Assembly (NCBI GenBank): GCA_034006035.1
Contig: JAVETN010000001.1
Location: 228,392-252,391, forward strand
DNA length: 24,000 bases
Reading direction: 5' to 3'
Source of the DNA: Desulforegulaceae bacterium
GTDB taxonomy: Bacteria > Desulfobacterota > Desulfobacteria > Desulfobacterales > JACKCP01
This document shows, piece after piece, positions 121 to 23,645 of this stretch. The position numbers and the translations under genes were made by a program. Within the stretch, counting starts at the first letter, position 1. Each line of letters starts with the position of its first letter. The notes below the pieces were generated by a model. It made no database searches, was not told the origin of the DNA, and saw only the letters and a program-made list of their open reading frames with translations.

Positions 121-2376
121 TTAAAATAAAGAGTTGATAAAACAGCTTGAACTTCCGCTTGATGATTTCATAGGTTTTGGATCTGGGACATTGTAATATT
201 CACTTGTGATGGCTATTCCTCCTTCTGATTCAGCAGAAAAAAGAAGGGAATCGCTTAAGGTGACTTTCAAAACTTTTCCTCTTGAAGGTAATTCTTTTTT
301 TAGAGTTCTATTAAAACTATAGATATTTATTCCTTTATCGGTTCCCGCATAAATAAAATCTTTACTTGCTGAAATTGTATTTACCTTTGTTTTGGCATCA
401 ATTCTATTTGTTTGTATAAGGTCTGTGCTGTTTAATGTATAAATAAGCTTTCCTGCTGCTACAAAAAGAGTTGAATTTTTACAATAAATATCTGTAATTT
501 CATTTTCGGGATTAAATTCTTCTGCTTTGAAAAGAAGGTAAGGGGCTTCAGAATTATCAAGACTTAAACTTTTAAGAGTTTTATCAGAGCCTGTAAAAAG
601 AGTTTTTGAATTTTTATCAATAAATAATGACTGAAATTTTTGGTCCTTTTTAAAAGTTTCTCCAACCGACAAAATTTCAGAATTTTCATATTTATAAATT
701 TCAATTCCTTTTTCAGTCCCAAGATAAATGTATGGTTCATTAACTGCCAATGAAAGAGGCGTTGAGGTAATATCAAATGATTTTTCAATTTTAGGGTCTG
801 ATTCAATATTTCCAAAAAGTAAAATTTTGTTTTCACTTACACCAACAAAACTTTCTGAGAATTTTTTAATGAAAAGAGGGTTATCTTTTTTAATCAATTT
901 AATCAGTTTTAATTGTGTGTCATCAGATAAATCAAAAAATAAAAACCCTGAGTTGCCAGATTTAGAGCTGATTGCGGATAAAATGTTTTTGTTTTTTTCG
1001 ATTTGGGAAAATGAGTAAAAAGGATTTGTTGATTTTACTGTGCTGGGCTCTGAATTGACTGGGACATTAATTTTTGAAATACCCTTTGAAATATCAGAGA
1101 TAAAAACTGAGGCGTTTTCATGTGTTAATGAATCATATTTTAATGAATAAGAATAGCTGAACCCGTTTTTATATTCTGTAGTTTTATAAATATTTACCCC
1201 TTCACCATCTTTGTCTGAAGTTGTGTTTGATATCACTGAGTAGTCGACAATTTGCAAGCCTTTTTCACCATCTGCAATAAAAGCCAATGAGCCGGATTCA
1301 TTTAGATCTAAAGAGTTCCCTGCTAAAATATCCTGGCTTCTTCCTAGATTCTCAGGCCTTTTTTCCCCTTGATTTTCAAGTAAATTCCCTTTATCATCAA
1401 ACACTTTAAACTTAAACAAAGCTGTTTTTTGATTATTCTGGTAGTCATAGGGACTTGTAATAAAAATAAAAATATTCGACTCAATTTCTTTAGCTTTTAT
1501 ATCTTTAGCAAGACTTATTGTGTTAAAATTAACTATTCTTAGATCCCTTTTAGATACTGGTTCAGGTTGGTCTTGAATTTTTTTTAATTCTTCAATTTTT
1601 TCAGGAGAATCAGGAAGAGGAGTGTTAATCGGCAACTGAGTATTTATAAGAGCTGTTTTTTTCTTATCCGATTGTTTGTAGTCTTTTGTTAGATCAAAAA
1701 TTTTTAATCCATAATTACGATCAAGAATTGCTAAATAATCTTTTCCACCAAAGGAGAAAAAATCAATGTCAAAATATCCCCCTGTTGTTAATTCTTTTTC
1801 TGATAAGCCGTTTTGCCTATAACCGCCTAAATATTCGAATTCCAGGTTGTTAGCTCCTTTATCTACTTTAACTATTCTGAAACCATAGTTATAATCTGCA
1901 ATATAAAGATAGTCTCCGTTAAGAGCAAGGCCATGAGCGTCTATTTCAGCTAAGCCCTCCAAGGTCTTTCTTGGTTTACCTTTGAGGAAGCCTGGATCAA
2001 CACCAATGCTTTTAATGTTTTTTATTTCATCTTCGTTAATGTTTTTAATATCTTTGTCGTTGTAATCATAAACAAAAACCCCTGATTTACCCGCAGCTAA
2101 ATATAAGATTTTATTTGTATTATCAGTAATAACAGCGGTAATGGAATTGGAAGGACTTATATCAAAAGAACTTTTGAGGTTTAATTCTTTGTCATAAATT
2201 TTCAATATGGTTCCAAGGCCATGGAAAACATAATTGTCATCTATTGCCACAGCGTCATCTGAAAAATGAGGCCAACTATTAGTGTTTAATAGTTCAAATG
2301 AATGAATGGAAAAACTGGAAAATCCCATGAATAAAACAAGTAAAACTATTTTTTTAAAATTTAATTTGAGCTTCAA
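121..2376 (-). CDS. Secreted beta-propeller surface protein with LVIVD-like repeats and a C-terminal poly-Ser + CFINSLF tail
   Basis: 751-aa ORF with signal peptide MKLKLNFKKIVLLVLFMGFSSFSIHS. The unit Y-x-A-x3-4-G-(L/I/F)-x-I-x-D/Y recurs (YLYIADYNYGFRIVKV, LAILDRNYGLKIFDL, AFIADGEKGLQIVDY, IYLGTEKGIEIYKY, IYAGTDKGINIYSF). The start codon is TTG at 2376..2374, preceded by GAGGGGG. It overlaps the upstream gene by 23 nt. The protein ends SSSGSSSCFINSLF. Confidence 0.85.
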   Translation of the reverse strand: MKLKLNFKKIVLLVLFMGFSSFSIHSFELLNTNSWPHFSDDAVAIDDNYVFHGLGTILKIYDKELNLKSSFDISPSNSITAVITDNTNKILYLAAGKSGVFVYDYNDKDIKNINEDEIKNIKSIGVDPGFLKGKPRKTLEGLAEIDAHGLALNGDYLYIADYNYGFRIVKVDKGANNLEFEYLGGYRQNGLSEKELTTGGYFDIDFFSFGGKDYLAILDRNYGLKIFDLTKDYKQSDKKKTALINTQLPINTPLPDSPEKIEELKKIQDQPEPVSKRDLRIVNFNTISLAKDIKAKEIESNIFIFITSPYDYQNNQKTALFKFKVFDDKGNLLENQGEKRPENLGRSQDILAGNSLDLNESGSLAFIADGEKGLQIVDYSVISNTTSDKDGEGVNIYKTTEYKNGFSYSYSLKYDSLTHENASVFISDISKGISKINVPVNSEPSTVKSTNPFYSFSQIEKNKNILSAISSKSGNSGFLFFDLSDDTQLKLIKLIKKDNPLFIKKFSESFVGVSENKILLFGNIESDPKIEKSFDITSTPLSLAVNEPYIYLGTEKGIEIYKYENSEILSVGETFKKDQKFQSLFIDKNSKTLFTGSDKTLKSLSLDNSEAPYLLFKAEEFNPENEITDIYCKNSTLFVAAGKLIYTLNSTDLIQTNRIDAKTKVNTISASKDFIYAGTDKGINIYSFNRTLKKELPSRGKVLKVTLSDSLLFSAESEGGIAITSEYYNVPDPKPMKSSSGSSSCFINSLF

Positions 2377-3205
2377 AACTTACCCCCTCTTCATCTCCAA
2401 TACGCTTTTGGATTGCGAGTGAATATCTGTCTTTGGCAAAAAAACTGATTCCAAAAATCCACCCAATATTTTTTGAGGTTTTAATTTTTTCTTCATATAA
2501 AAAGTCTTCTTTTTCAATATAAAGTTTTTCATCTCCTGTTATACTTGAAACTCTTGGTCCCAAAAAAACTTTTATATGATCAGTCGAGCCAGTCAGTACC
2601 ACCCCTGCTTGAAGTTCATCAAGATCTGCTTCATAAGTTAGATTGTTTCTTCCCTGTTTTTTAGCATCTATGGTTATTTTATTGTATTTAAAATCAAGAT
2701 GGGCATTTAGATGTTTGAAAATTGAATTAACTTCTTTTTCAAACATTTTAAAGGCCAATCCTCCTCCAAAGCTGACCATTGAATCATCTTTTACATGAAA
2801 TTTACTTGGAGAGGTATACAAACCACTTATTGTTTCGTCCAGTATCATTAAGTCTGATTCAAATTTCCCAAAACCTGCTTTACCGTAAATTAAAAAATTG
2901 TCAAAAAATAAAAAACCTGCCTCAACTTCATTGAGATCAAAGGTATTATTGGAGCTCCTTGTTCTGGAATAATGCCTGTGATCATCTGTAGAGTTCTTGG
3001 GTTTGTGCAAGAATGTTTTTATTTGTTTTGGAAAATCGTTTTCTTGGTGATCTCTTCTGATAAGGATCTGAAACCCCGATAAAAATTTACTATCCTTGTT
3101 TTCAGTGTAAGAAAAAGAATTGATTCCTGAAACAGGGGCAGATAAAACTGAAACAGAACTTAATGGATATAATAATATAGAAATGAGTAACCATATTTTT
3201 TTCAA
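2354..3205 (-). CDS. Outer-membrane beta-barrel protein (OmpA/porin-like small barrel)
   Basis: 283-aa ORF with signal peptide MKKIWLLISILLYPLSSVSVLSA. It shows alternating amphipathic strands and a C-terminal VSFEAQIKF ending in Phe, typical of an OMP beta-signal. The start is TTG (3205..3203) with GGAGG 8 nt upstream. Confidence 0.8.
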   Translation of the reverse strand: MKKIWLLISILLYPLSSVSVLSAPVSGINSFSYTENKDSKFLSGFQILIRRDHQENDFPKQIKTFLHKPKNSTDDHRHYSRTRSSNNTFDLNEVEAGFLFFDNFLIYGKAGFGKFESDLMILDETISGLYTSPSKFHVKDDSMVSFGGGLAFKMFEKEVNSIFKHLNAHLDFKYNKITIDAKKQGRNNLTYEADLDELQAGVVLTGSTDHIKVFLGPRVSSITGDEKLYIEKEDFLYEEKIKTSKNIGWIFGISFFAKDRYSLAIQKRIGDEEGVSFEAQIKF

Positions 3206-3250
3206 AAAAAGAACCTCCTTGATGTAAAAATTTGTTTGGAGGCAAAAAAC

Positions 3251-3760
3251 TTAATCATTGAAAGATGATATTCTTATATTGCCTGAAATTTCGGCTTTAA
3301 ACCCTTCCACAGTGATGCTGCCAAAACTCTTCCCGTCATTCATGAATTTGACACCGTCTTCCCCTTGAATTGTTATTGATCCAATATGGTATCTGTCTAT
3401 TTGGACCAAAGACTTGTCCAGTTCCACATTTATTCCACTGGTCAATCTACCTGTATAAGGATCAATTGAAGTGGTTTGATTTATGGAAACTGGATTGTCG
3501 AGGAAGGTCTTTCCTGAATACACAATTCCTTTAATCAGCAAAGACGCAGGATTCCCGTCGGTGCCGTCGTCATCCCTGAAAATTAAGTTCTCTGCAGTCC
3601 AGTCAATTCCAAGAATATTGTCACTGCTAATTCTAATTCCTGACTGTCCTGTCAAGGTCTTCATTTTTTCAGGAGAAACCGGCGAAAGAGCAATGGCTTG
3701 TCCAGCGGTAAGGATTATTATAGATACCATTATTGTTGCTATGTATGAAAACTTGGTCAT
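3251..3760 (-). CDS. Small secreted GQxG-motif protein (fifth paralogue of the cargo family)
   Basis: The ORF track starts at a TTG at 3799, but ATG 3760..3758 has a perfect AGGAGG 6 nt upstream and yields a clean signal peptide, MTKFSYIATIMVSIIILTAGQAIA. After the signal peptide comes SPEKMKTLTGQSGIRISSDN and later DDDGTDG. Both motifs are shared with the genes at 10746..13886. Confidence 0.8.
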   Translation of the reverse strand: MTKFSYIATIMVSIIILTAGQAIALSPVSPEKMKTLTGQSGIRISSDNILGIDWTAENLIFRDDDGTDGNPASLLIKGIVYSGKTFLDNPVSINQTTSIDPYTGRLTSGINVELDKSLVQIDRYHIGSITIQGEDGVKFMNDGKSFGSITVEGFKAEISGNIRISSFND

Positions 3761-3794
3761 AGCTGACCTCCTATCTGTAAGATCAAATCTCACA

Positions 3795-4110
3795 GGCAAC
3801 CCGGCTAGCCTTAAATTAATAAGGTCCCGCAGCTTTCCGTCCCGGAATTACTTCCGGTTTGGCTAAAGAGGGCGGCCCGGCTGACCATAAATTCTGGCCC
3901 CGTGGCTTTCCGTCCCATGGTCACCCAGTGGTTTGGCTAGTTATTCTGACTCTCTTGGCAACTCGGCTGACCTGAAAAATTCAGGCCCCGTAGCTTTCCG
4001 TCCCGGGATTACTCCCGGTTTGGTTTTTACAAAGTGTACAGGTGGCTAGGCTGACCTTGAGTAAACAAGGTCCCTTGGCTTTCCGTCCCGGAGTTACCTC
4101 CGGTTTGGCT
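3795..4110 (-). repeat. Four tandem copies of a GC-rich structured RNA element in the 5' leader of 3251..3760
   Basis: Units lie at 3795..3864, 3871..3938, 3957..4025 and 4041..4110. The minus-strand consensus is AGCCAAAC-[P1 hairpin with GNRA loop]-GACGGAAAGCY-RYGGG-[P2 hairpin]-CAGCC. P1 variants are CCGGAG-GUAA-CUCCGG, CCGGGA-GUAA-UCCCGG, CCGGAA-GUAA-UUCCGG and CCACUGG-GUGA-CCAUGG, so the stem changes are compensatory. Unit 4 is about 57% G+C by hand count, against AT-rich flanks. Confidence 0.75.
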
Positions 4111-4155
4111 CTGGTATCCTTTGGTTTGAATTTCACCCTTAATCGTTTTTTGCCT

Positions 4156-4205
4156 CCATGCAGATTTTTTTATTTTCATAAAAAGATCTGCATGGCAGTT
4201 TTTTT
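4156..4205 (+). terminator. Strong hairpin plus T-run; canonical intrinsic terminator only in the plus orientation, function unclear
   Basis: ccatgcagat (4156..4165) pairs perfectly with atctgcatgg (4186..4195), and T/A pairs extend the stem inward. A T-run at 4199..4205 follows on the plus strand. On the minus strand the stem is followed by AGGCAAAAAACG, with no U-run. No plus-strand gene lies upstream. Confidence 0.4.
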
Positions 4206-4257
4206 CAAAGAACAGTTCTTACCTGAACATTGCTTTTACAGCAATTGGCCTGAAGCC

Positions 4258-4287
4258 GGAACAAAGACCTGATAATTTAATCAGGCT
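4258..4287 (-). terminator. Weak candidate terminator after the TolB-like gene
   Basis: Minus strand: CCUGAU-UAAAUU-AUCAGG (arms 4280..4285 and 4268..4273), followed by UCUUUGUU. The stem is short and the U-tract imperfect. Confidence 0.3.
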
Positions 4288-4364
4288 AAGTCTTTATCTA
4301 ACAAGCTAAATCTTAACTTTTATAGATAATAAGAAAAAGAGCCTTAATTGATTAATTATCTGAT

Positions 4365-5846
4365 TTATTTAATTATACATTGATATTTAACAAAATCCAA
4401 TCCATTTACACCAAGAGAATGAAATTTGTTTTCAGATTCAAAAATTATTGGAAATTTTGATATAAAATTGTCTATTGGTGTTTTTGTTTCAATACCGTCA
4501 ATATTTAAGATCCATTTTTTATCATCATGGCTTGCACAATAAGCAAGGCGATTTCCTTTGGGACTGAACTTGGGCAGGCCGGTGATAGCCTTGTATTTTC
4601 TTCCCTCATTTTCATTTTTTACCATTACAACGTTTTTTCCATCAAATGCCATATAGGCAATTTCATTTTTTACAGGATTAAATATTGGCTGTTTTACATC
4701 AAAATAGGCTTTGCCTTCTTTTTTATCCCAAACTACAAACCATCCCTTTTGTTTTAAAAAAGCTCTATAAGCGTAGTTTCTACCATCGGTTGAAAACTTA
4801 ATAAGACCTGAAGAGTCGTACTCTTTTTCTTTTTTACCGTTTATCACAATTGTGGGTTTGTCTTTTTTTATTCCCGGATATCCGTATGAATTTCCAGTAT
4901 CAGAATATGCAATAGGACCAAGAGTATCGAATTTGAATTCTTTTTTTCCGTTTACAACCATCTGCCAGTCTTTTCCTGTGTTTGCAGGATAGGAAAGAAT
5001 TGTTCCTTGCGGGTTGTAAAAAGGTTCGCCAATGGTCTTGTAGGGCGGGTGTTCATTAAAGTTTTCTAGCAAAATGAGGTTGTCTTTATCATTTTGAACC
5101 ACACAGGCGAAATTGCCCAATTTGGAAAATTTTAAAAGTATGGCATTTTTATAAGGTTTTGATTCTTTTTCATCAATAAAGACCTGCCAGCCATTGTCCT
5201 TAAAAGCTATGAACCCTAGCTTTGAAGAATCAGGGCTGAAAACAAGTTCATTTATATTTTTGAAAGGCCCATATTTTTTGTCCTGGCAAATTACATATCC
5301 TTTGTGTCTGCCTTCAAAGGCAATATAGGCCAGTCTTTTTCCGTCAGGACTGAAAACAGGGTCATTTTTAAATCCGTCAAAACTTTTGCCTTCTCTTCCA
5401 TTTATTACAACAAATTGTTTGTCACCTTTTTGGGCTATATAGGCAAAGTTTTTACCATCATTACTTGTTACAAGATTGCCTGTACCATCATATTTTTTTT
5501 GTTCCTCCCCATTGATTACTGCAAAATAATTGGAGTTAGAAATTGCTGTAAAAGCAGAGATTCCTGAAAAAGGAGCAAAAAATGGGGTGCCTTTCCCAAG
5601 GCTTTGATAGGGTCCATAGACTTTTGAATTTATCTGGGCAAACATTTTTTTATCTTTTAAAAGGGTTATTCCTAGTTTGTCGTAATCAGGAAAGTTTGAG
5701 GAAATATCAAGAATATTTGATTGCTCTGGAGGTGTTGATAAGCTTATTATTTTTTCATTTATTTCAAGGATTTCGGCATTAATCAGGGGGGAATAAATTA
5801 ATGACAGGGCAAAGACAATGGTTGGAACATTAAATCTGATTTTCAT
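4365..5846 (-). CDS. Periplasmic TolB-like (PD40/WD40-like) beta-propeller repeat protein
   Basis: 493-aa ORF with signal peptide MKIRFNVPTIVFALSLIYSPLINA. A unit of about 45 aa repeats: FSPDGKRLAYIAFEG, FSPDSSKLGFIAFKD, SNDGKNFAYIAQKG, FSTDGRNYAYRAF, FNPVKNEIAYMAF, FSPKGNRLAYCAS. Each is followed by (V/I)INGKE-x-K-x-(Y/F)D. Confidence 0.8.
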   Translation of the reverse strand: MKIRFNVPTIVFALSLIYSPLINAEILEINEKIISLSTPPEQSNILDISSNFPDYDKLGITLLKDKKMFAQINSKVYGPYQSLGKGTPFFAPFSGISAFTAISNSNYFAVINGEEQKKYDGTGNLVTSNDGKNFAYIAQKGDKQFVVINGREGKSFDGFKNDPVFSPDGKRLAYIAFEGRHKGYVICQDKKYGPFKNINELVFSPDSSKLGFIAFKDNGWQVFIDEKESKPYKNAILLKFSKLGNFACVVQNDKDNLILLENFNEHPPYKTIGEPFYNPQGTILSYPANTGKDWQMVVNGKKEFKFDTLGPIAYSDTGNSYGYPGIKKDKPTIVINGKKEKEYDSSGLIKFSTDGRNYAYRAFLKQKGWFVVWDKKEGKAYFDVKQPIFNPVKNEIAYMAFDGKNVVMVKNENEGRKYKAITGLPKFSPKGNRLAYCASHDDKKWILNIDGIETKTPIDNFISKFPIIFESENKFHSLGVNGLDFVKYQCIIK

Positions 5847-7647
5847 GGTTTATCTGATCCTTTTCTACTTTTTTATCTTTTTTAAATGGATTTAATTTTT
5901 TTAAAAATTTTTTTACTTTACCTGCAGCGTGGTGGAGCATTTCCTGCTGATGATGCAGCATTTCCATTTGAACAGAAAGGGGCATGGTAACTCCAAAAAG
6001 TGCAATATAAAGATAGGTTTCCTGCTCATAATCCAGCCCTGCATAGGGATTGTAAACTATTTTGGTAAAATCTGTTGAGTTCATATTGGTGCTTGAGTTG
6101 TTTGGAACTTTAAGTGAATCATTAAACAAATAGCCAAAGCCAAAATCCAGGGTAACATTTTTAGGCAGATGAAGGGAAAATCCAGCAGCATAAAAAGTCA
6201 TATCAGGGAGAAAATAAAGTGCATCAATTTTATCTTTTGGAAGAGATGCAGGTCGAAATTCATAACCGCATCTTAAAGTAAGCCAGTCTTTTGGATAAAC
6301 TTCAAGACCAACTCCCCAATGCCAGGTATCTTCCATTTCCCTTTTAACAATAAGATTATTATCTCCGCCTGTATATCCAAGAAGTTTAGCTATCCTGAAA
6401 AGCTGAATTCTTTGATCAAAAGTAAATTTATCTTCTTTTAAAGCAGCCCAGTTTGACCAGTGGAGATCTGCTGTGATCTGAATTTTTGACCAGGGTTTTA
6501 GTTTTATACCCATATCAATTCTTCTTGGAAAAAGCTGGGTTGCTGTCACTCTTCCAGTTTGAGAAGGCACTGCTTTGTAGGGCATATCAAGCATCCCTGC
6601 TGTTGTCATTGTATATTCTGTGCTTCCGTTCCAGGCAATCTGTCGCTGCCATTGTTCACTATAGGTAAATTTGTATTTTCCTGAAAGTTTTGCTTTTGCC
6701 TGACTCTGGTAAGAAAGGCCAAATCCAAACCAATGGGTTGGTTCCCATAAAAGACCAAGATTTACCGAAGGGGTAAAGTCATCTCTTAGGTCCATTTCCA
6801 TGCTTGTGTTGTGCTCATAGGGACCAAGTCCGCCTCCAAGCCAGGGGGCTGGAAGAGTCAATTGTGAAACAACAGGTATTTCAAGATCTCTTGTTGCATC
6901 ACCAATAACCCTTGTAAGTCCGACAAGCTCGTTTGGGGTTCTTTGATCAAGGGATATTCCCATTGCTGTTTGTCCAAATCCCACTGAAATTCCAAGTGAG
7001 AGTTGGTCTGAGGCTTTATAGCTCAAAGTTGGAGCAGCATAAATAAGATGCTGAAGGTAAAGAGATTTACATCCAAAACGAAGAGGATCCCCTGGATCAT
7101 TATGGGTCATCCCTCCTCCGTAGGGAGCGTAGTTTGTGTATGCAAAAGTCCACTTTGAGTCAGGCTTTCTATGGGATAGTCCAAGGCTCACAGCAGCAAG
7201 AAAATCTATTGGACCAAGAAAAGGGATGTACATTTTGGTTGAGGAGTTTGTGCCTTTTGTATTCCTTAATGGATCAGGGCCTCCATGGTTTGAATCCGGG
7301 TCATTTATATTAGGTTCAGCATTTGGCCCCCATTTGTCGCCCATAAAACCTTTAAAGTCTTTATTTTCTTTAAAGCTCCCTTTTCTTTTAATTATAGGTA
7401 TACCAAAACCGTTGGAAAACATTGCTCCTTCATCAATTTTTGATAATCCTGCAGGATTGAAATGAGCAGACATATGACCAGGAGGAGAGGCTGTGCATGC
7501 ATTTGCAAGACCTAAAGCTCTTGCATCAATTGCAGGGTTTTCATTGAAGGTTGCCAATGTTTCTTTTGATAAAAACAAAACAAGAACAATTGTAATTAAA
7601 AGTTTTTTTATTCTCATGTTTTTTGTTTTTGGGCTAAGGAGTTTCAT
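5830..7647 (-). CDS. FadL/OMPP1/TodX-family outer-membrane transport barrel with an unusual basic/His-rich C-terminal extension
   Basis: 605-aa ORF. Its N-terminal region ARALGLANACTASPPGHMSAHFNPAGLS matches the FadL hatch-domain pattern (G-x-A ... NPAG-L). The body is long and beta-strand-rich. An alternative start is M11 (ATG 7617..7615, giving MRIKKLLITIVLVLFL); neither start has a clear SD. It overlaps the next gene by 17 nt. Confidence 0.8.
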   Translation of the reverse strand: MKLLSPKTKNMRIKKLLITIVLVLFLSKETLATFNENPAIDARALGLANACTASPPGHMSAHFNPAGLSKIDEGAMFSNGFGIPIIKRKGSFKENKDFKGFMGDKWGPNAEPNINDPDSNHGGPDPLRNTKGTNSSTKMYIPFLGPIDFLAAVSLGLSHRKPDSKWTFAYTNYAPYGGGMTHNDPGDPLRFGCKSLYLQHLIYAAPTLSYKASDQLSLGISVGFGQTAMGISLDQRTPNELVGLTRVIGDATRDLEIPVVSQLTLPAPWLGGGLGPYEHNTSMEMDLRDDFTPSVNLGLLWEPTHWFGFGLSYQSQAKAKLSGKYKFTYSEQWQRQIAWNGSTEYTMTTAGMLDMPYKAVPSQTGRVTATQLFPRRIDMGIKLKPWSKIQITADLHWSNWAALKEDKFTFDQRIQLFRIAKLLGYTGGDNNLIVKREMEDTWHWGVGLEVYPKDWLTLRCGYEFRPASLPKDKIDALYFLPDMTFYAAGFSLHLPKNVTLDFGFGYLFNDSLKVPNNSSTNMNSTDFTKIVYNPYAGLDYEQETYLYIALFGVTMPLSVQMEMLHHQQEMLHHAAGKVKKFLKKLNPFKKDKKVEKDQINHENQI

Positions 7648-7661
7648 TTCAAATCTTTAAA

Positions 7662-8807
7662 TTAGAGTTTAAAATCAAAGGGTATGCTTAAACTAAAACT
7701 TACATCTGAGTTACTATTGAAAAGTCCTATATTTAAACTTGTATTAACTGAGCGGGTGCTTGAAATTCTCCAATTTGTGCCTATGGAAAGTGAAGATGAA
7801 TAAGATGTGGGAGAAGTGCTTTTTCCTATGTTCCTCCAATAGTAATCCGTTGAGTAGCTATATGTATACTGAAACCCCACACTAACTGAAACAAGATATG
7901 ATAGGGAATAACCCATCCCAAGATTGGCACTTATTTGGTTTCCCGGACTTACTTTTTCAATATAAATTCCCTGTTCTTTTTGTTCTTTGTCGGTATTGTA
8001 CTTTGCATCGTCCACATCCATATTTTTGTAAAAAGAAATTCCGCCAAAGGCAATAACCGGGTCAATTGATTTGCTGAAATTTGCACCGGCAAAGACAGTG
8101 TAGTATCCATTTCCTATTGCAACCTCATCATCACCGTCCATTTTATAGGGATTGTCTCCAAGGGGGACAATTATCCCTGCATTGAGAATTGTTGTTGGAA
8201 TTCCTTCTCTTGGCTTGAAGGGTTGGTATTGGATGTTAAAGCTTGGGTCTCCTATTCCACTTCCGTTTTTTGAACCTTTTTGACTGTCTATATATTCATA
8301 GGAAAAGGGGATATTTGAAGAAAGGGTGAGGTTTTTTAAAATCGGTACTTTAAATGAAAGAGAATTGGAAAGTTTATGGGAGTTTAAATGCTTTACCATG
8401 GTGCTTGTTCTTCCGTTTTCATCTTCAACTGATTGCAATTGGTCATAGGTGTCTCCTGTATAGCTTATTGAATAGGAAATGTTTAAAAGACCTGGAGTTG
8501 CAAGAGTGTATTCACGGCCGGCAGCATCAAGAATATCTTCGTCTTTTTGTTTTTTTTCTTCATCAGTTTGTTTAAGCTCGCTCATTACTTCCGAAGCTTT
8601 TTGTTTTTTTTCAATCTCAAGTAAGAGCTGTTCAAGCTTTTCCAGTCTTTCTTTTATTTCTGGAGAATTTTTACGATCGATTTCATCTGCATTGAGGTTT
8701 GAATAAACTGGTAAAAGAATAAATAATAAAATTATTAAATAGAAAAAAGGAAGTTTTTTGGTTGCTAATTGAAGTTTTGTAGCCATTTGCCTTTGCTTTC
8801 CAATCAA
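7662..8807 (-). CDS. Outer-membrane beta-barrel with N-terminal coiled coil (FapF-like architecture), paralogue B
   Basis: 381-aa ORF. After the signal peptide comes a heptad-like charged helix (EIKERLEKLEQLLLEIEKKQKA), then AAGREYTL and an amphipathic-strand barrel containing a GIGDP motif; it ends IPFDFKL. The codon at 8807 is TTG. ATG at 8786..8784 (MATKLQLATKK...) is an equally good or better start. Confidence 0.8.
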   Translation of the reverse strand: MIGKQRQMATKLQLATKKLPFFYLIILLFILLPVYSNLNADEIDRKNSPEIKERLEKLEQLLLEIEKKQKASEVMSELKQTDEEKKQKDEDILDAAGREYTLATPGLLNISYSISYTGDTYDQLQSVEDENGRTSTMVKHLNSHKLSNSLSFKVPILKNLTLSSNIPFSYEYIDSQKGSKNGSGIGDPSFNIQYQPFKPREGIPTTILNAGIIVPLGDNPYKMDGDDEVAIGNGYYTVFAGANFSKSIDPVIAFGGISFYKNMDVDDAKYNTDKEQKEQGIYIEKVSPGNQISANLGMGYSLSYLVSVSVGFQYTYSYSTDYYWRNIGKSTSPTSYSSSLSIGTNWRISSTRSVNTSLNIGLFNSNSDVSFSLSIPFDFKL

Positions 8808-9904
8808 AGAATAAAATTAAAAGGTATTCTGAATTTAAAACTAAAATCTTCGTCATTATTTGTGAGCCCAATACCCAGTTCCATATAAATTTTTCTTTTT
8901 TCTGTGATTTGCCAGGCAGTTCCTAGCAAGAAAAGCGAGCTGGTGGTTGAAGAAGAAGAAAGTTTTCCTCTTCCTCTCCAAGTATAATCAGTTGGGAATT
9001 GATAAATAAATTTACATCCAAAGCTTATGGATACATTTTCTGAAATAACATAGCCCATTCCAGCATTAAAACCAGCCTCATCTCCAGGGTTTATTTTTTT
9101 TAAATATTCACCTGTTTCGCCAAGGTAAATTGAGTTTTTAAAATCCAGTCTTGAGTTTTTAAATTTGTATGAGTAAAAAAAGCTTCCATAAACAAGGGTA
9201 GGGGAGACTTTTTTACTCATCCCAAGTCCTAGGTTGAATGTATAAACACCTTCTCCTGTTGGGAATTCTGTTTGGGGGTTTATTTCATAGGGGCTTCTTC
9301 CCATGGGAAAGGTAAAACCAGAACTTATTGTAAACCCGGGTTTGTTGTCTTGTTTTTTGAAGGGCTGGAATAAAATTCCCATATAGGGGTCTCCAAAATC
9401 ATCCATATCAGCAGTTTCCCCCTGAATATCATCATAGATTGATACAAAAGGCAGATCAATTAGAAAGGAAAGATTGTTTTTTAAAGGATATTCAATTGAA
9501 ACAGTATTTACCATTCTGTGAGTTGCTTCACGCTCAAATGAAGTCCCTGATTCTTCTGCTGAACTTATTTGGTCATAGGTTTTTCCATAATATGAAAAAC
9601 TATAATCTACTCCGACTACTCCTTTGGGTCTCAGTGTATATTCACGGCCCGCAGCAGATAAAAGTTTTGAATACTCGTCTTGTTCAGATAAAAAATCTTT
9701 TTTGGTTTTTTCGGTCAGAGTTTTTTTGTTTAGTTCTTCTGCACGTTTTTCAAGCTCTATGATTTGTTTATCAAGAAGGTCTTGGTTGATATCTATTTCA
9801 TCTGCAAAACAGGCAACAAAGGGCAGGGTTAAAAAACACAAGAAATAAAAAACATATAATTTGCTGAATTTATTGGCCTTGATCATTTTTTGTAAGTCTT
9901 CCAT
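8804..9904 (-). CDS. Outer-membrane beta-barrel with N-terminal coiled coil (FapF-like architecture), paralogue A
   Basis: 366-aa ORF, colinear with 7662..8807 (both have AAGREYTL; DFGDPY vs GIGDPS; the ends are RIPFNFIL vs SIPFDFKL). The coiled-coil segment is LLDKQIIELEKRAEELNKK. An alternative start at ATG 9886..9884 (MIKANKFSKLYVF...) forms an ATGA overlap with the C39 stop, suggesting translational coupling. Confidence 0.8.
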   Translation of the reverse strand: MEDLQKMIKANKFSKLYVFYFLCFLTLPFVACFADEIDINQDLLDKQIIELEKRAEELNKKTLTEKTKKDFLSEQDEYSKLLSAAGREYTLRPKGVVGVDYSFSYYGKTYDQISSAEESGTSFEREATHRMVNTVSIEYPLKNNLSFLIDLPFVSIYDDIQGETADMDDFGDPYMGILFQPFKKQDNKPGFTISSGFTFPMGRSPYEINPQTEFPTGEGVYTFNLGLGMSKKVSPTLVYGSFFYSYKFKNSRLDFKNSIYLGETGEYLKKINPGDEAGFNAGMGYVISENVSISFGCKFIYQFPTDYTWRGRGKLSSSSTTSSLFLLGTAWQITEKRKIYMELGIGLTNNDEDFSFKFRIPFNFIL

Positions 9905-10626
9905 GGTCCTGTTTCATCCAGCCTGTAGGTTTCAATTTTATGGGTTGGATCTATTGAGGGAGTCATCAGGGTTTCCTGAAATTCTTTGTCAATATATCTT
10001 AAATCTCTTCTTGAAAGCTTAAGGTTTGAGATTGTTTTTTCTTTATCTGCCCAGATGATGAACATTATATTGTCATCCCAGATTTTTTTAAATTTATCCA
10101 TTGAGTAGCTGGAATTCCCCAGGAAAGGATCAGCAAGAAAAACATGATCTTTATAAATTCCTTTTAAAACAACAAAATGTTTATAATTGTATACCTTGAT
10201 TGGAAGGATACAAGGCCAGTACTCATTGTTATTCAAGTCTTCCAGTTTAGCTTTGTAGCCCCCGCTTTTATAGCCTATGGCGTCGAGAAACTGCTGCATA
10301 TCCCATAAAGAAAAAGCTCTGAGTTGTCTAATCTGCTCTTTATCGCCAAATTCCATGAGACCTCTTATAACTTGTTTTTCGCTTAAGTTTTCGTTGAGAT
10401 AAAAGTTTAAAAGAGTTGCAAGAGCAGCAGAACCGCAGCTGAAATCATGCTCCTGCTTTACTATATGTCTGAAGTTTTCTTCAGTAAAAGGGATGATATC
10501 TTCTCTGATGCGAATTTCACCTTTATAGCCTGAAGAAAAAATAGCAATTTTTTTATCTGCTCCTGCTTCAGGAAAAAAATTTGGGATTAAAGCAATTAAA
10601 ATTGCAAAACCTATGGCAAAGTGCAT
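9883..10626 (-). CDS. Stand-alone exported C39-family cysteine peptidase (FapD/FilB-like), catalytic residues intact
   Basis: 247-aa ORF. Q58-x5-C64-G (VKQEHDFSCGSAALATLLNFY) matches the C39 oxyanion Gln plus the nucleophile Cys. H150 and D166 sit in KHFVVLKGIYKDHVFLADP, the C39 pattern H-f-v-V ... DP. It has a hydrophobic N-terminus (FAIGFAILIALIPNFF) and is not fused to an ABC transporter. Confidence 0.85.
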   Translation of the reverse strand: MHFAIGFAILIALIPNFFPEAGADKKIAIFSSGYKGEIRIREDIIPFTEENFRHIVKQEHDFSCGSAALATLLNFYLNENLSEKQVIRGLMEFGDKEQIRQLRAFSLWDMQQFLDAIGYKSGGYKAKLEDLNNNEYWPCILPIKVYNYKHFVVLKGIYKDHVFLADPFLGNSSYSMDKFKKIWDDNIMFIIWADKEKTISNLKLSRRDLRYIDKEFQETLMTPSIDPTHKIETYRLDETGPWKTYKK

Positions 10627-10745
10627 TTTTTTAATTAATCTTTTTTTAAAGTTTTTATGTTCTCATATCCTAAACACAATTTATCTTTCGGGCAACAAAA
10701 ATCTGCATTGAATCCTTGTTAATACAAAAAGTTTTTTATATAAAT

Positions 10746-11399
10746 TTAAGGCTGATCCCACCAATGGTTTGGAGCAAAAGCGTTTTGAATATTTCCTTCA
10801 CTAAAACCAAGAACAGAATGAATTCCCTGATTTCCTGCCTGGGGATTTAGAATAAGAAAAAAACCCTGTCTTTCTGAACTTGAGTCAAAAGAAAAGTTTT
10901 TGGAGCCCAGGTTTTCTCTTGAATATTCCAGCGGAGGAGAGTTCCCACCTTCAAGAGCTGGGTGAAATGTTCCTGTAAATGAGTTGAAATTACCGGAAAT
11001 GTTTCCATTGAGCATATTGGAACCTATTATAAGTCTTTTAAGGGTTGGATTGGCAGAGTTTAAATCGTCAAAATCCGCTTTTATAATAAGTCCGTCAATT
11101 GTTAAATTTGCAGTATTTGTTCCAATACTTATATTTGTCCAGTTTTGATCCCAGCCGTTTGCACCTTCTTTTGCATAATAGCCAAGCTTGATGGATTCAA
11201 TTTCTGTAAAGGTTTCAATATGGGTATTTAAAAATATTCTTGTTGTTGTGTTAGTGGTGGTAAAATCTGAAAAAGAAATTTGTCCTGTGGTTGTTTTCAT
11301 TTTTTCTTTTGAAAGTTCCTCAAGGGCAAAAGAAAAATTTACAAAAATACTGAAGAAAACAATTAGAATAAAAAGAAAGAATAGTTTAGTTTTAATCAT
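10746..11399 (-). CDS. Small secreted GQxG-motif family protein (divergent member)
   Basis: 217-aa ORF with signal peptide MIKTKLFFLFILIVFFSIFVNFSFA, followed by LEELSKEKMKTTTGQISFSDF. Its ATG forms a 4-nt ATGA overlap with the upstream stop (11396..11399). Confidence 0.8.
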   Translation of the reverse strand: MIKTKLFFLFILIVFFSIFVNFSFALEELSKEKMKTTTGQISFSDFTTTNTTTRIFLNTHIETFTEIESIKLGYYAKEGANGWDQNWTNISIGTNTANLTIDGLIIKADFDDLNSANPTLKRLIIGSNMLNGNISGNFNSFTGTFHPALEGGNSPPLEYSRENLGSKNFSFDSSSERQGFFLILNPQAGNQGIHSVLGFSEGNIQNAFAPNHWWDQP

Positions 11400-12292
11400 A
11401 GATTACCCAAGTTTCTTCCAGGCACTTCAATTGTTAGTCTATGTATATTTATTCCGTCAATTGCAACGGCACCAAAATCTTTATTTCCCAAGTGGATATT
11501 TTCAATTCTTAGAGAGCCAGTGATTGGGGCTGAAACATAAATAACTGGTTCTGTATCAGATCCTGTTGGATCATTGGTTGCTCTTTGTCCTATATCAAAG
11601 GTGGCAGGAGAGTTGGTTTTAAAATTACCTAATTTAAATTTCCCTGAAGGCTGCCAGGTTGAAGGGTTTTCAGGAATGCCTGAAAACGAATCTGCAATAA
11701 ATAGGTTTTGAAATCCAAGCCAGTTTCCATTGGCTTCCGGTCCGTAGTCAAATTTAAATGAATCTACCTTAAGCTGGAATCCTGTCTCAAAATCTATGCC
11801 TGAACCATGACCTCCAAAGTAAAGATTCCATTTTGGAAAACCTGTTCCTATGATCTCCATGCTTCCAATGGCTGATTGGTTAAATTCCAGTTCACCAATT
11901 TTAATAAAGGACTGAACCTCAAAATCATCAGATTCAATTGAAATATAGGGGTTTGGATATCCGCCTGAAGCTGGGTCAGAAGGGCTGGCTATATCAATGA
12001 GGATTTCTCCCATAATTCCGTCATTGTCAAAATCAACATTGCCTGTATTATAAGTGGTTAAGGTTTTTACGTTTTTAAAATTGAGATAACCCGGGGTTGG
12101 TTTATTTAAGTCATCAATTAATTTGATTTGTGAATCTTCATTGTAAAAAACTGCATTGTCAATGGCAATAGAAATACCTGCCTGGGCAGTTTGAGATTTT
12201 AACTCGTTTTCACTCATCAAGGATATTGCGAATAGACTTGAATTTGTCAGGCAGATAAAAATTATAATTGTAGTAAGGTTTTGTAAAAACAT
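11396..12292 (-). CDS. Small secreted GQAG-motif family protein
   Basis: 298-aa ORF with a hydrophobic N-terminus, then MSENELKSQTAQAGISIAIDNAVFY and DFDNDG. GGAAG lies 5 nt upstream of the ATG. Confidence 0.8.
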   Translation of the reverse strand: MFLQNLTTIIIFICLTNSSLFAISLMSENELKSQTAQAGISIAIDNAVFYNEDSQIKLIDDLNKPTPGYLNFKNVKTLTTYNTGNVDFDNDGIMGEILIDIASPSDPASGGYPNPYISIESDDFEVQSFIKIGELEFNQSAIGSMEIIGTGFPKWNLYFGGHGSGIDFETGFQLKVDSFKFDYGPEANGNWLGFQNLFIADSFSGIPENPSTWQPSGKFKLGNFKTNSPATFDIGQRATNDPTGSDTEPVIYVSAPITGSLRIENIHLGNKDFGAVAIDGINIHRLTIEVPGRNLGNL

Positions 12293-12310
12293 AAAGACTT
12301 CCTATTTTCT

Positions 12311-13036
12311 TTATTTGTTTGGACTTACTTCAACAGTGCCTCCAAAAATTACCTGGGTGGCAGGGCCCTTTTCAATTGTAAGAAGAGTCTGGTTGCTGTT
12401 CATTGCCTCAAAATCAGATCCAGTAAAAAAAACTATGCTTTTTGTTGAGTGTCCAGTTGTGGCTTCAATGGAAGGAAGTTTTGAAATAATTCCTCCTTTT
12501 ATAAGGTTTGGTTCCACTGGGAGAATCCTTGAAATCTCTTTGAGGCCTGAATTTATAACACCCATTGCTGTAAGAAGAGGGCAAAAGTCTGTTGTTTCAA
12601 TTATCAGGGGAGAAAAGTTAACTCCTTTTTCTTTTGTTGATTTCTTATTTTCTTCCCTGTGTATTTTATTAATTTCTGAATTATAATTTTTAATTAAATT
12701 TTTATTTAAACTAAGATTCCCGATTTGTTCACCAAAATCTTTTTTAAGTTTGGCATTGGAATATTTTCCAAAATCAGTTACAGGTTTGAAGTATAATCTA
12801 GAACCTTGATCATCTGAAATTATCTTTATTCCTGCTTTTTTAATTGAGCCGTATCCGTCGGTGTCAGTATAGATTATGGTACCATATTTAACTTTTACTA
12901 TAATTTCTTCTAGCTCAATTGCTATTCCAGCCTGGCCTCTTATTTTTTTCAAATCATCCTGGTGAAGTATTTCTTTTGAGAAACAGGGAAAAATAAAAAC
13001 AGAAAAAATAATTAATGTTGCAATTGTTTTTTTCAT
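12311..13036 (-). CDS. Small secreted GQAG-motif family protein (closest paralogue of the major-subunit candidate)
   Basis: 241-aa ORF with signal peptide MKKTIATLIIFSVFIFPCFS, then HQDDLKKIRGQAGIAIELEE and YTDTDGYG. Its C-terminus LLTIEKGPATQVIFGGTVEVSPNK parallels ALITIEKSGTSTMAILGGTLEIAPH of 13113..13886. GGAGA SD. Confidence 0.85.
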   Translation of the reverse strand: MKKTIATLIIFSVFIFPCFSKEILHQDDLKKIRGQAGIAIELEEIIVKVKYGTIIYTDTDGYGSIKKAGIKIISDDQGSRLYFKPVTDFGKYSNAKLKKDFGEQIGNLSLNKNLIKNYNSEINKIHREENKKSTKEKGVNFSPLIIETTDFCPLLTAMGVINSGLKEISRILPVEPNLIKGGIISKLPSIEATTGHSTKSIVFFTGSDFEAMNSNQTLLTIEKGPATQVIFGGTVEVSPNK

Positions 13037-13061
13037 TTTTTTTTCTCCTTGGTTCAGGTTG

Positions 13062-13095
13062 AAAAAAACCCCGCCTTTATATTAAAGACGGGGTT
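13062..13095 (-). terminator. Intrinsic terminator immediately after the major-subunit candidate gene
   Basis: Minus strand: AACCCCG-UCUUUA-AUA-UAAAGG-CGGGGUU (arms 13089..13095 and 13067..13073, with inner pairing), followed by a run of U (13062..13068 are A on the plus strand). It sits between 13113..13886 and 12311..13036. Confidence 0.75.
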
Positions 13096-13112
13096 AGTTT
13101 ATGACTTACTTA

Positions 13113-13886
13113 TTAATGAGGAGCTATTTCAAGGGTTCCACCTAGGATAGCCATTGTTGATGTACCTGATTTTTCAATTGTGATTAGGGCATGATTTGCG
13201 TTAAAGTGTTCCTGGTCAGCTGTTCCGTATGAATCTGTAACTATACCAGCAGCCGCATCCCAGGTACCGTTTCTTAATTTAATGGTTTTGAAATCTACTG
13301 TTGAATAGGTTTTGATTTCAACTGTAGGAAGACCGATTACAACACCACCAACTGCAAGAGCTGATGCAGGAAGAGTTGCTGCGTCCATTCCAGTTGTATT
13401 GTAGTTCCATCCAGCTGTAAGGGCCTTACATGTTCCAACATCAATTGTTAGTGGAGAAATACCTGTTGTAGTTCCTGCCATCTGGCCATTTGTAGGATCT
13501 AGAGTGCCACCGGCAATAGCTGCTGCAACACCAGCTGATTCGATAATACCAATGTCTTCTGTGTTACCAAATGTGGCTCTTAGTGCATCTACTCCATAAA
13601 TATCTGCATTAAGTATTGCATTTATTGTTATAAGTTTTTGCATTTCTTCTGCCTGGTCTATCATGATACCGGCTGCACCAGTCATTCCGTTTACACCATC
13701 GGTATCCCAGAATGTGCTGTCTGCTAAACTTTTTTGATAAATTACAATACCATCAACTGCAATAGAAACCCCAGCCTGACCTGTTGCAGATCTAAGCTGT
13801 GAATTGTCCATTTTTTCAAGTGCTGATGCTGCCATTGGCATGGTGAGAATTGCTGCTACTGCTAAACCTACGATAAAACGTTTCAT
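13113..13886 (-). CDS. Secreted Ala/Gly/Thr-rich GQAG-motif protein; candidate major structural subunit
   Basis: 257-aa ORF with signal peptide MKRFIVGLAVAAILTMPMAASA, then LEKMDNSQLRSATGQAGVSIAVDGIVIY and FWDTDGVNG. It is first in the block, with a strong SD (AGGAGGAG), its own structured leader and its own terminator. It is visibly more GC-rich than its neighbours. Confidence 0.85.
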   Translation of the reverse strand: MKRFIVGLAVAAILTMPMAASALEKMDNSQLRSATGQAGVSIAVDGIVIYQKSLADSTFWDTDGVNGMTGAAGIMIDQAEEMQKLITINAILNADIYGVDALRATFGNTEDIGIIESAGVAAAIAGGTLDPTNGQMAGTTTGISPLTIDVGTCKALTAGWNYNTTGMDAATLPASALAVGGVVIGLPTVEIKTYSTVDFKTIKLRNGTWDAAAGIVTDSYGTADQEHFNANHALITIEKSGTSTMAILGGTLEIAPH

Positions 13887-19174: not shown

Positions 19175-19750
19175 ATGAGGAAAACAATTTTTAAGATTTT
19201 TACTATTGTATTTTTGGTAGCGACTATTTCAATTCCTTCTTCAGTAGTGGCAGATCAGGGTAAGTTTTATTTGGGTCCGGCCATGGGTTATAATATGGAT
19301 GCTTTTAATGGAGAAATGGACAGAGATAATGCCTTTGGGTTTAATTTTGCAGTTGGTTATGATTTTACTGAACGTTTAACTCTAGAAGCACAATTTGATA
19401 AGATAAGAGAAATTGGTACAAAAAACCCAGCTTCACATGATGAGGTTGACCTTCAGGCTTATTCATTAAATTTAAAGTTTTATCCAGCCCAGACCAAAGA
19501 AAAAATTAACGGCTATGTAACTTTTGGTCTTGGATGGATGGAAGCAAAAGCTCCAGGAAAATGTTCTGATTCAATCAAAAAAGGCAGGGGAAAAGAGGAA
19601 GACTTTTGGGGTAAGTTTGGAGTAGGAAGTGATTTTATTGTATCAGATAAAATATCTTTTTTTATTGAAGCTGACTATTCCCAGGGTTTTAAGGACTTGA
19701 ATCCCATTGATTTTTTCTCAGCTAAAATAGGTTTTAAAATATATCCTTGA
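19175..19750 (+). CDS. Small outer-membrane beta-barrel protein (8-strand OmpW/OmpA-like porin family)
   Basis: 191-aa ORF with signal peptide MRKTIFKIFTIVFLVATISIPSSVVA. It has alternating aromatic/glycine strand patterns (GFNFAVGYDF, YVTFGLGWME, KFGVGSDFIV) and a C-terminal strand KIGFKIYP. GGAGG SD. Confidence 0.8.
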   Translation: MRKTIFKIFTIVFLVATISIPSSVVADQGKFYLGPAMGYNMDAFNGEMDRDNAFGFNFAVGYDFTERLTLEAQFDKIREIGTKNPASHDEVDLQAYSLNLKFYPAQTKEKINGYVTFGLGWMEAKAPGKCSDSIKKGRGKEEDFWGKFGVGSDFIVSDKISFFIEADYSQGFKDLNPIDFFSAKIGFKIYP

Positions 19751-19798
19751 AATTAAGATGTTTAAAGTTGAAGTTTTGTCCGGTTTATTAAAAGAATT

Positions 19799-19840
19799 TA
19801 CCCTTCCAAACATATTATGTTTGGAAGGGTAGTTTTTATT
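19799..19840. terminator. Bidirectional intrinsic terminator between convergent genes
   Basis: A 15-bp perfect stem pairs tacccttccaaacat (19799..19813) with atgtttggaagggta (19817..19831). T-run GTTTTTATTT lies on the plus side and an A-rich tract on the other side. Confidence 0.8.
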
Positions 19841-22649: not shown

Positions 22650-23645
22650 TCAGTTTATTGTGATGGTTATATCATCAGTATCAACTGCACCATTTTTGTC
22701 AGTAACAGTGAGGGTGATAGTATGAGTGTCGATTGGAAGAAAATTTATTGCAAGATCTCTTCCTTGACCAAAATTACCGTAAACATTTGATCGCCATTTA
22801 AGTTCTGAACCGTAAAGCTCCCCGTCTTCATTATCCCAGCCTTCTCCGTTGAAAGTTATTGTATCTTTCAGATTAAAAGAAGAACCGTCCTGAGGATAGG
22901 TTATTTTGGCTTCAGGTCTTGTGTTTTTAATTGTTATTGTAACAGGGTCTGCAAAAGCCTGTAAACCTTTTGAGTCTTCTGCAATAAGGGTTATGGTGTG
23001 GGTTCCTCCGGAAAGATCGTCCCTGATTAAGGTTCCACCTTCTCCAAGTTCTTTATCTATATTTGAAAACCATTTTAGCCTTTTCCCTGAAAGATTACCA
23101 TCCTCTAGATCTTCTGCGGTCCCTTCAAATAAAATCAGGTCTCCTGAATTGTATTCAGCATTTTGATAAGGCAATCTTAAAAAAACAGAATGGGGCGGAG
23201 TGTTTTGGTCGTCTTCTTGGAGAGAAAATTTGATTTTTGCCATGCCAAGATTCCCTTGAGCATCATTAGCTATGAGTGTTATTTCGTGAGTTCCATCACT
23301 TAAATATTTTGGATTAAGCAGATTCCCATTACCAAGATGATCATCTTGACTTGAAGTCCATATCAGGTTTGAGCCTGAAATGGGCAGCCCTTTATGATCA
23401 TAGGCATTTCCAAAAAAAGTTATAAATGATCCTGAATTGTAAACAGCTCCGTCACTTGGAGATATTATTGAAACTGCAGGGGTAACTTCTGTATTTTCAG
23501 GAGATTCAGAGTCTTCTGTTTTGTTCTCCTTGGTAACACTGCTTGAACTGCTGCCCCCTCCGCTGGCAATTATGGTAAAAAGCCCGAAAAGAGTTATTAA
23601 AATTAAAATAATTTTTTTTGTTATGTCTTTATTTTTTTCTGACAT
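22650..23645 (-). CDS. Secreted or anchored protein with three Ig-like repeats of the same family
   Basis: 331-aa ORF. Its N-terminal hydrophobic segment KKIILILITLFGLFTIIASGGGSSSSS contains no Cys, so it is not a classical lipoprotein. Three units carry L-x-W-x-S and G-T-H-x-I-T-L motifs. Confidence 0.85.
   Translation of the reverse strand: MSEKNKDITKKIILILITLFGLFTIIASGGGSSSSSVTKENKTEDSESPENTEVTPAVSIISPSDGAVYNSGSFITFFGNAYDHKGLPISGSNLIWTSSQDDHLGNGNLLNPKYLSDGTHEITLIANDAQGNLGMAKIKFSLQEDDQNTPPHSVFLRLPYQNAEYNSGDLILFEGTAEDLEDGNLSGKRLKWFSNIDKELGEGGTLIRDDLSGGTHTITLIAEDSKGLQAFADPVTITIKNTRPEAKITYPQDGSSFNLKDTITFNGEGWDNEDGELYGSELKWRSNVYGNFGQGRDLAINFLPIDTHTITLTVTDKNGAVDTDDITITIN

Follow-up and report, generated by a model that had tools for sequence, protein, structure and literature searches.

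We analysed a 24 kb stretch of Desulforegulaceae DNA (24,000 nucleotides of contig JAVETN010000001.1, called the window below and numbered from its first letter) in which two large exported proteins, P1 and P2, end in almost the same short peptide. An earlier reading made from the letters alone, the sequence-only reading, had described P1 as an LVIVD propeller protein and P2 as an Ig-repeat protein, and had proposed that their common end is an unrecognised sorting or anchoring tag. Both labels agree with Pfam, which gives LVIVD/beta-propeller matches in P1 and PKD/Big_7 Ig-like repeats in P2. The two open reading frames (ORFs) and their tails lie as follows.

121..2376, (-) strand: P1, exported tandem beta-propeller protein of the LVIVD type (Pfam, AlphaFold2), 751 amino acids; last gene of a Fil/Fap-like locus
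124..192, (-) strand: predicted disordered linker (NVPDPKPMKSSSGSSS) and tail of P1, residues 729-751, after the last propeller blade
121..165, (-) strand: P1 tail, SSSGSSS-C-FINSLF, with stop codon at 121-123 and the Cys codon TGT at 142-144
19846..22635, (-) strand: P2, exported PKD/Big_7 Ig-repeat protein (Pfam), 929 amino acids; a C-terminal domain is followed by linker and tail
19846..19887, (-) strand: P2 tail, NNSSSS-C-FINSFF, with stop codon at 19846-19848

The reverse complement of window positions 121-165 reads TCA TCA AGC GGA AGT TCA AGC TGT TTT ATC AAC TCT TTA TTT TAA, which translates as SSSGSSSCFINSLF and is the end of P1. P2 ends in ...NNSSSSCFINSFF or, in fuller form, ...SSSKSNNSSSSCFINSFF*. 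A Ser/Gly-rich run stands directly before the Cys in both tails (SSSGSSS-C and NNSSSS-C), and only six residues follow it in either, without a transmembrane (TM) segment, just as the sequence-only reading had it. When all 820 pairs of stop-to-stop ORFs of at least 80 amino acids in the window were compared, P1 and P2 agreed at nine of their last ten residues and the runner-up pair at five. From the amino-acid composition of the window, ~1.4e-7 pairs sharing at least nine of the last ten residues would be expected. The agreement is far above chance, which bears out the claim of a shared tail. BLASTP of P1 against P2 found no similarity elsewhere, the best local match being the tail itself, and the two proteins are indeed unrelated apart from it. 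At the DNA level, the genes agree at 22 of their final 27 nt (22/27), in keeping with the consensus given earlier (TGYTTTATCAACTCTTTWTTTTAR).

Both carriers have N-terminal signal peptides, as read from the sequence. Translation of P1 from a TTG start at 2376 yields a Sec-type signal peptide, MKLKLNFKKIVLLVLFMGFSSFSIHS. The public gene call (P0004, 735 amino acids) begins at an internal Met and loses this signal peptide (window 2329..2376, (-) strand); with the TTG start, which lies in a 23-nt overlap with the upstream outer-membrane protein (OMP) gene, the N-terminus again resembles those of P0005 and of the L122 orthologue. P2, like P1, begins with a basic n-region and a hydrophobic h-region and looks Sec-like (MNKLKYLLFILFFLNALSRLGFTA...). 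At the other end of P1, an AlphaFold2 model built with seven orthologues as the alignment shows an all-beta tandem propeller with a predicted local distance difference test score (pLDDT) of ~90 at residues 500-690 and a folded core that ends near residue 724. Residues 729-751 have a pLDDT below 50 and are therefore predicted to form a flexible appendage. We also considered the P1 fold as a clue to function and found it uninformative, being a generic tandem seven-bladed propeller whose best Protein Data Bank (PDB) matches are eukaryotic WD40 proteins. In P2, residues 824-888, just before the linker, match "choice-of-anchor U" weakly (20.6 bits against a cutoff of 32), and no PDB sequence relative of the C-terminal domain was found.

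The tail is retained far more faithfully than the proteins that bear it. Orthologues P0005-P0010, which are 36-53% identical to P1, and the corresponding proteins in L122 and L129 all end in ...SSCFINSLF. Eight P1-family sequences were aligned, whose identity averages 48.5% over all pairs; their last nine columns do not vary at all (100% identity) and constitute the sole fully invariant nine-column window of 780, whilst the 31 columns ahead of them are ~50% identical and carry indels. Orthologues of P2 and homologues of its C-terminal domain end in CFINSFF, CFIDNLF, CFINSLF or CFISSMF after poly-Ser or poly-Gly. The CFI core is present in P1, P2 and every homologue, and all of at least 12 distinct sequences run on for exactly six residues after the Cys and finish in Phe. 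No other stretch of the P1 family is as conserved as the tail, and the alignment points to strong purifying selection that holds it at a fixed distance from the C-terminus.

The orthologues come from Desulfobacterales-type metagenome-assembled genomes (MAGs; Desulforegulaceae, Desulfobacteraceae). Near-identical P1 orthologues are also deposited under a 'Candidatus Muiribacteriota' MAG (L122, JBNJGP010000128.1, Y22_30dBSe2 bin) and a 'Nanobdellota archaeon' MAG (P0014); these two records are probably mis-binned Desulfobacterales contigs.

The likeness of the two genes at the DNA level could also be explained by a recent local duplication of a 3' end, or by gene conversion, that left a tail of no function. 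Both window tails use the minority codons ATC-AAC-TCT for Ile-Asn-Ser (133..147 and 19858..19872, (-) strand), where ATC makes up 16% of Ile codons and AAC 38% of Asn codons, as against ATT-AAT in the tails of orthologues from other genomes. These shared minority codons hint at some gene conversion between the two 3' ends within the window genome. However, the peptide is kept in both families across genomes at 36-60% protein identity and is there written with different codons, and therefore it is the peptide on which selection acts. That nothing else in the P1 family is conserved so well also speaks against a functionless copy, as does the fact that an independently built curated model describes the same motif. 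Comparison of the orthologues effectively refutes recent duplication as the explanation, and we give it hardly any credence.

The curated model in question is NCBIfam NF041763.1, "CFI-box putative sorting motif-containing protein", a hidden Markov model of 14 positions with a cutoff of 15.9 bits. Its positions 1-14/14 align to P1 residues 738-751 of 751, model and protein ending together, and the tail cannot be called unrecognised when a model already covers it in this way. Full-length P1 scores 13.6 bits, below the cutoff, and its tail alone 19.4 bits. Full-length P2 is not reported; its tail alone reaches 12.0 bits over model positions 4-12, with the FF ending unaligned. Amongst full-length orthologues, P0007, P0010 and P0011 score 13.7, 13.4 and 8.8 bits, all below 15.9, and amongst tails taken alone the range is 18.5-19.9 bits for P1 and its orthologues and 12.2-19.9 bits for the relatives overall. 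P1 and P2 are borderline, sub-threshold members of the CFI-box motif. Since the scores fall below the cutoff, annotation pipelines leave such proteins as "hypothetical protein", the name carried by all public records of the orthologues.

We probed the same model with variants of the P1 tail. The match is lost when C or F is changed to A, 6.9 bits are lost when I is changed to A, and the last four positions contribute little to the score. With AEDKAED in place of the linker the score drops from 19.4 to 14.3 bits (~5 bits lost), and an all-Gly linker gives 18.7 bits. Because the variants score in this way, the anatomy of the model can be equated with that of the tail: a Ser/Gly (S/G) tether, C-F-I and four more residues. 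The sequence-only reading had named, as a case against its proposal, an existing family model that already explains the tail, and this case holds in part, in that NF041763 aligns end to end. The explanation that it offers is thinner, for the database entry names no sorting enzyme and bears only the "putative" label, no paper on the motif was found in the literature searched and the proteins fall below the cutoff. As NCBIfam already lists the tag among its putative motifs, the tag does not make a new class. The sequence-only reading had also held that the tail fits none of the tripartite classes known to it, and this stands: the TM helix and basic cluster are missing, and none of the PEP-CTERM, LPXTG, MYXO-CTERM, GlyGly-CTERM and PGF-CTERM models matches the natural tails.

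Other carriers were sought in larger collections, the searches covering tails near-exact to CFI[ND]S[LF]F or matches with strong E-values. A DNA scan of GTDB genomes with back-translated CFINS[LF]F-stop gave at least 120 matches; of the 120 listed, two (L122, L124) are real and orthologous to P1 or P2, and the other 118 are chance matches in AT-rich DNA. A stricter scan of JGI metagenomes, which demanded four small-residue codons before the tail, returned five matches, two of them real and both orthologues. An exhaustive profile search of 1.84 billion representatives with a profile of the 30-residue tail gave only three P1 orthologues at E <= 1e-3 (36-51 bits). A word-indexed search of 5.8 billion clusters with a 40-residue tail profile yielded 35 candidates, none at E <= 10, and left the known orthologues unscored as well. 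No further tail was present in ~118 kb of related loci. Every additional example amongst the matches listed is an orthologue of P1 or of P2, and the two unrelated carriers are those of the 24 kb window. A tail confined to these two proteins, which the sequence-only reading had named as a case against its proposal, may therefore be the true state of affairs.

Taken together, these data provide strong evidence that the tail behaves like a functional C-terminal tag: its carriers are unrelated, its tether is flexible, its conservation is extreme and its distance from the C-terminus is fixed. It is reasonable to think of a sorting or anchoring tag, given two unrelated exported carriers, a Ser/Gly linker of variable make-up, conservation unmatched elsewhere in the P1 family and a predicted flexible appendage. 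The layout is a Ser/Gly-rich tether, an invariant Cys-Phe-Ile and four residues more, ending in a hydrophobic residue and Phe at the free C-terminus. We read it as a short C-terminal sorting/anchoring tag of the CFI-box kind, attached through its Cys and retaining the protein at the surface, and we consider this reading evenly poised between right and wrong. P1 and P2 would cross the inner membrane by Sec, guided by their N-terminal signal peptides. In the periplasm a dedicated partner would recognise the exposed heptapeptide C-F-I-x-x-hydrophobic-F-COOH. The invariant Cys thiol, by analogy with MYXO-CTERM, may serve as the attachment point for a lipid or another covalent link, and upon attachment the FINSLF hexapeptide could be either removed or kept. 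The protein would then stay on the cell surface or at the outer membrane, probably in association with the Fil/Fap-like fibre apparatus.

Several observations weigh against this reading. The window has no gene of the sortase, exosortase, rhombosortase, rhomboid or CPBP type, and its sole protease is a C39 peptidase, for which the tail linkers have no conserved GG-type site. The tail has no TM helix to hold it at a membrane enzyme. No third tail-bearing family appeared amongst the matches listed by the near-exact-tail and strong-E-value searches. Full-length P1, P2 and their orthologues all lie below the curated NF041763 cutoff (8.8-13.7 bits, or unreported). Finally, no publication on the CFI-box motif was found in the literature searched, which included a 2023 preprint on Cys-containing C-terminal signals.

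The genomic setting of P1 may offer a different kind of partner. P1 is the last gene of a locus that is apparently a distant, undescribed Desulfobacterales version of the Fil/Fap systems.

2354..13886, (-) strand: Fil/Fap-like fibre locus, a distant relative of the Fil and Fap loci
13113..13886, 12311..13036, 11396..12292, 10746..11399 and 3251..3799, (-) strand: five DUF6160/FilA-like genes
9883..10626, (-) strand: periplasmic C39 peptidase, FilB/FapD-like (FilB 192 bits, FapD 121 bits)
8804..9904 and 7662..8807, (-) strand: two FilC/FapF-like barrels
5830..7647, (-) strand: FilD/FadL-like barrel
4365..5846, (-) strand: PD40 propeller
4156..4195: hairpin with an 18-bp stem, between the PD40 gene and the fifth DUF6160 gene, which are 565 nt apart
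2354..3205, (-) strand: predicted outer-membrane beta-barrel, 283 amino acids, with a weak OMP_b-brl match; its end overlaps the start of P1 by 23 nt

The scores against the Fil models, given here over their cutoffs, are 192/475 for FilB, 145 and 112/630 for FilC, 309/970 for FilD and 20-25/220 for FilA. All Fil and Fap scores are far below cutoff, and therefore the locus is only a distant relative of those systems; P1 itself matches no Fil or Fap model. The same gene order as in the window, ending in a P1 orthologue and then a TetR gene, recurs in L133/L134, L136 and L138, making P1 a fixed terminal component of the locus. Moreover, the gene for the 283-residue barrel always precedes the P1 orthologues. 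In each DUF6160/FilA-like paralogue a signal peptide comes first and then a conserved L/M-x-x-x-T-G-Q-(A/S)-G-(I/V) that resembles a double-glycine leader, and on the strength of this motif the five proteins may be substrates of the C39 peptidase. The PD40 protein ends in ...FVKYQCIIK, which places a Cys four residues from the C-terminus and has a CaaX-like look, without an S/G linker; its orthologue in L133 (6153..7625) ends in the same way. This Cys might pair with the CFI Cys in a disulfide, or might have nothing to do with it.

P2 lies in its own three-gene operon, ~6 kb from the Fil/Fap-like locus, amongst the following features.

22650..23645, (-) strand: Ig-like protein, 331 amino acids, directly upstream of P2 in the same operon; no CFI tail
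19798..19832: bidirectional terminator with a 15-16-bp stem, between P2 and the gene for the 191-residue OMP
19175..19750, (+) strand: OmpA-like beta-barrel gene of the 8-strand type, 191 amino acids, convergent with P2

The order of P2 and the gene for the 331-residue Ig-like protein recurs in L001 and L128, and the 191-residue barrel gene also adjoins the P2 orthologue in L124/L128. In the Ig-like protein a hydrophobic anchor at the N-terminus leads into GGGSSSSS. This arrangement mirrors the C-terminal Ser tether of P2 and suggests that the pair may be tethered at opposite ends. We rejected the notion that each CFI protein is paired with a homologous small OMP, the 283- and 191-residue proteins being unrelated to each other.

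These neighbourhoods bear on a second explanation, in which the tail is a non-covalent docking or secretion signal. Here a Fil/Fap-like outer-membrane component or a periplasmic chaperone would bind the F-I-x-x-hydrophobic-F carboxylate end, and the Cys would at most form a disulfide. Candidate receptors are the FilC/FapF-like channel, the FilD/FadL-like barrel, the adjacent small OMP and a periplasmic chaperone; the C-termini of pilins and OMPs, which are read by chaperones, the beta-barrel assembly machinery (BAM) and PDZ domains, may be compared. The distance from Cys to C-terminus and the terminal Phe are invariant in every sequence, which suggests that the carboxyl end itself is recognised. 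P1 is moreover fixed in the Fil/Fap-like locus and translationally coupled to a small OMP gene, P2 also has a small OMP gene adjoining it, and the missing TM helix leaves nothing to hold the tail at an inner-membrane enzyme. However, F-I-N-S-L-F lacks the alternation of an OMP beta-signal, the fibre subunits (the DUF6160 proteins) have no such tail and the two adjacent small OMPs are not homologous. Furthermore, no Fil locus lies near the P2 orthologue in L124/L128 over the ~13 kb on its upstream side and the 7 kb on its downstream side, and an S/G linker that leads to an invariant Cys is more characteristic of signals for covalent attachment. We regard docking of this sort as unlikely, though with an appreciable share of the probability.

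A third possibility is that the Cys tail serves some other end, as a degron or quality-control tag for a periplasmic tail-specific protease, as a redox or metal ligand, or as a cross-link in the fibre matrix. Hydrophobic C-termini are recognition elements for periplasmic PDZ proteases, a point in favour of the degron, and the conserved near-C-terminal Cys of the PD40 protein (...KYQCIIK) could supply a disulfide partner within the locus. Nonetheless, one would not expect a degron to be the best-conserved part of two large structural proteins, and both the curated annotation and the S/G tether favour sorting. Such roles seem to us improbable.

To return to the tag as a signal for sorting or anchoring, we infer the sorting role, the modification of the Cys and the reader of the tag from the layout of the tail and from its analogues. 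Two mechanisms could be envisaged, the one a modification of the Cys by analogy with MYXO-CTERM-type signals, the other a non-covalent recognition of the free C-terminal peptide by Fil/Fap-like machinery. A bolder hypothesis is that the tail may be a TM-free and mechanistically new surface-sorting signal of diderms, a tethered heptapeptide with a free carboxylate end, read in the periplasm either by Fil/Fap-like machinery or by a Cys-modifying enzyme yet to be discovered, which would attach large folded proteins (a propeller protein and an Ig-repeat adhesin) to the surface or fibre. We would sooner wager against this hypothesis than for it. If a tag of this kind does work without a membrane-spanning segment, the repertoire of Gram-negative surface anchoring would be wider. 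C-terminal sorting tags have repeatedly led to new processing enzymes, as with sortase, exosortase, rhombosortase and myxosortase. What is new here is, firstly, that selection within the P1-family protein is strongest, as far as the alignment indicates, on the heptapeptide and on its exact spacing from the C-terminus. Secondly, the curated model at its cutoff misses such members, which consequently stand in databases as "hypothetical protein". Thirdly, the P1 family is fixed in a Fil/Fap-like fibre locus, which gives a short list of candidate partners.

Amongst known systems, the C-terminal beta-signal of OMPs is alike in its terminal Phe. It differs in that positions -2/-3 of the tail are polar (N-S or D-N) and in that a disordered linker, not a barrel, precedes them. 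Consideration of the tail as a beta-signal was abandoned, as it has no alternating hydrophobic residues and no barrel domain before it. The eukaryotic CaaX box, which directs prenylation and then cleavage by Rce1, also places a Cys at a fixed short distance from a free C-terminus with mostly hydrophobic residues after it. However, the CaaX Cys lies four residues from the end and the CFI-tail Cys seven; moreover, P1 and P2 are predicted to be exported by Sec and would therefore be beyond the reach of cytosolic prenyltransferases. The Fap and Fil systems are alike in the neighbouring genes for a C39 peptidase, FapF/FilC-like barrels and a FilD/FadL-like barrel, and no C-terminal Cys tag or Cys secretion signal on Fap substrates was found in the Fap literature examined.

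Closer in sequence is the CFI-box-CTERM domain (NF041770.1, 69 positions, of the CFIATAAYGS... type), which likewise starts with an S/G linker and a Cys-Phe-Ile box. That domain runs ~65 residues past the box, whereas P1 and P2 stop four residues after CFI. A synthetic example of the domain scores 119 bits against NF041770, and the model matches no protein of the window. Closer in layout is MYXO-CTERM (TIGR03901), processed by CPBP-family myxosortases, in which a Gly/Ser low-complexity tether is followed by an invariant Cys on exported surface proteins. In that system the Cys of the signal region is required, and attachment of a lipid to it followed by cleavage distal to the Cys has been proposed (10.1101/2023.06.07.544157; see also PMC11980579). 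MYXO-CTERM has a TM helix and a basic cluster, whereas the CFI tails have neither and the window has no CPBP protease gene. Only when an artificial TM helix and RRRR were added to the P1 tail did the MYXO-CTERM model fire, at 28.1 bits, and therefore the linker-plus-Cys front end of the tail resembles that class.

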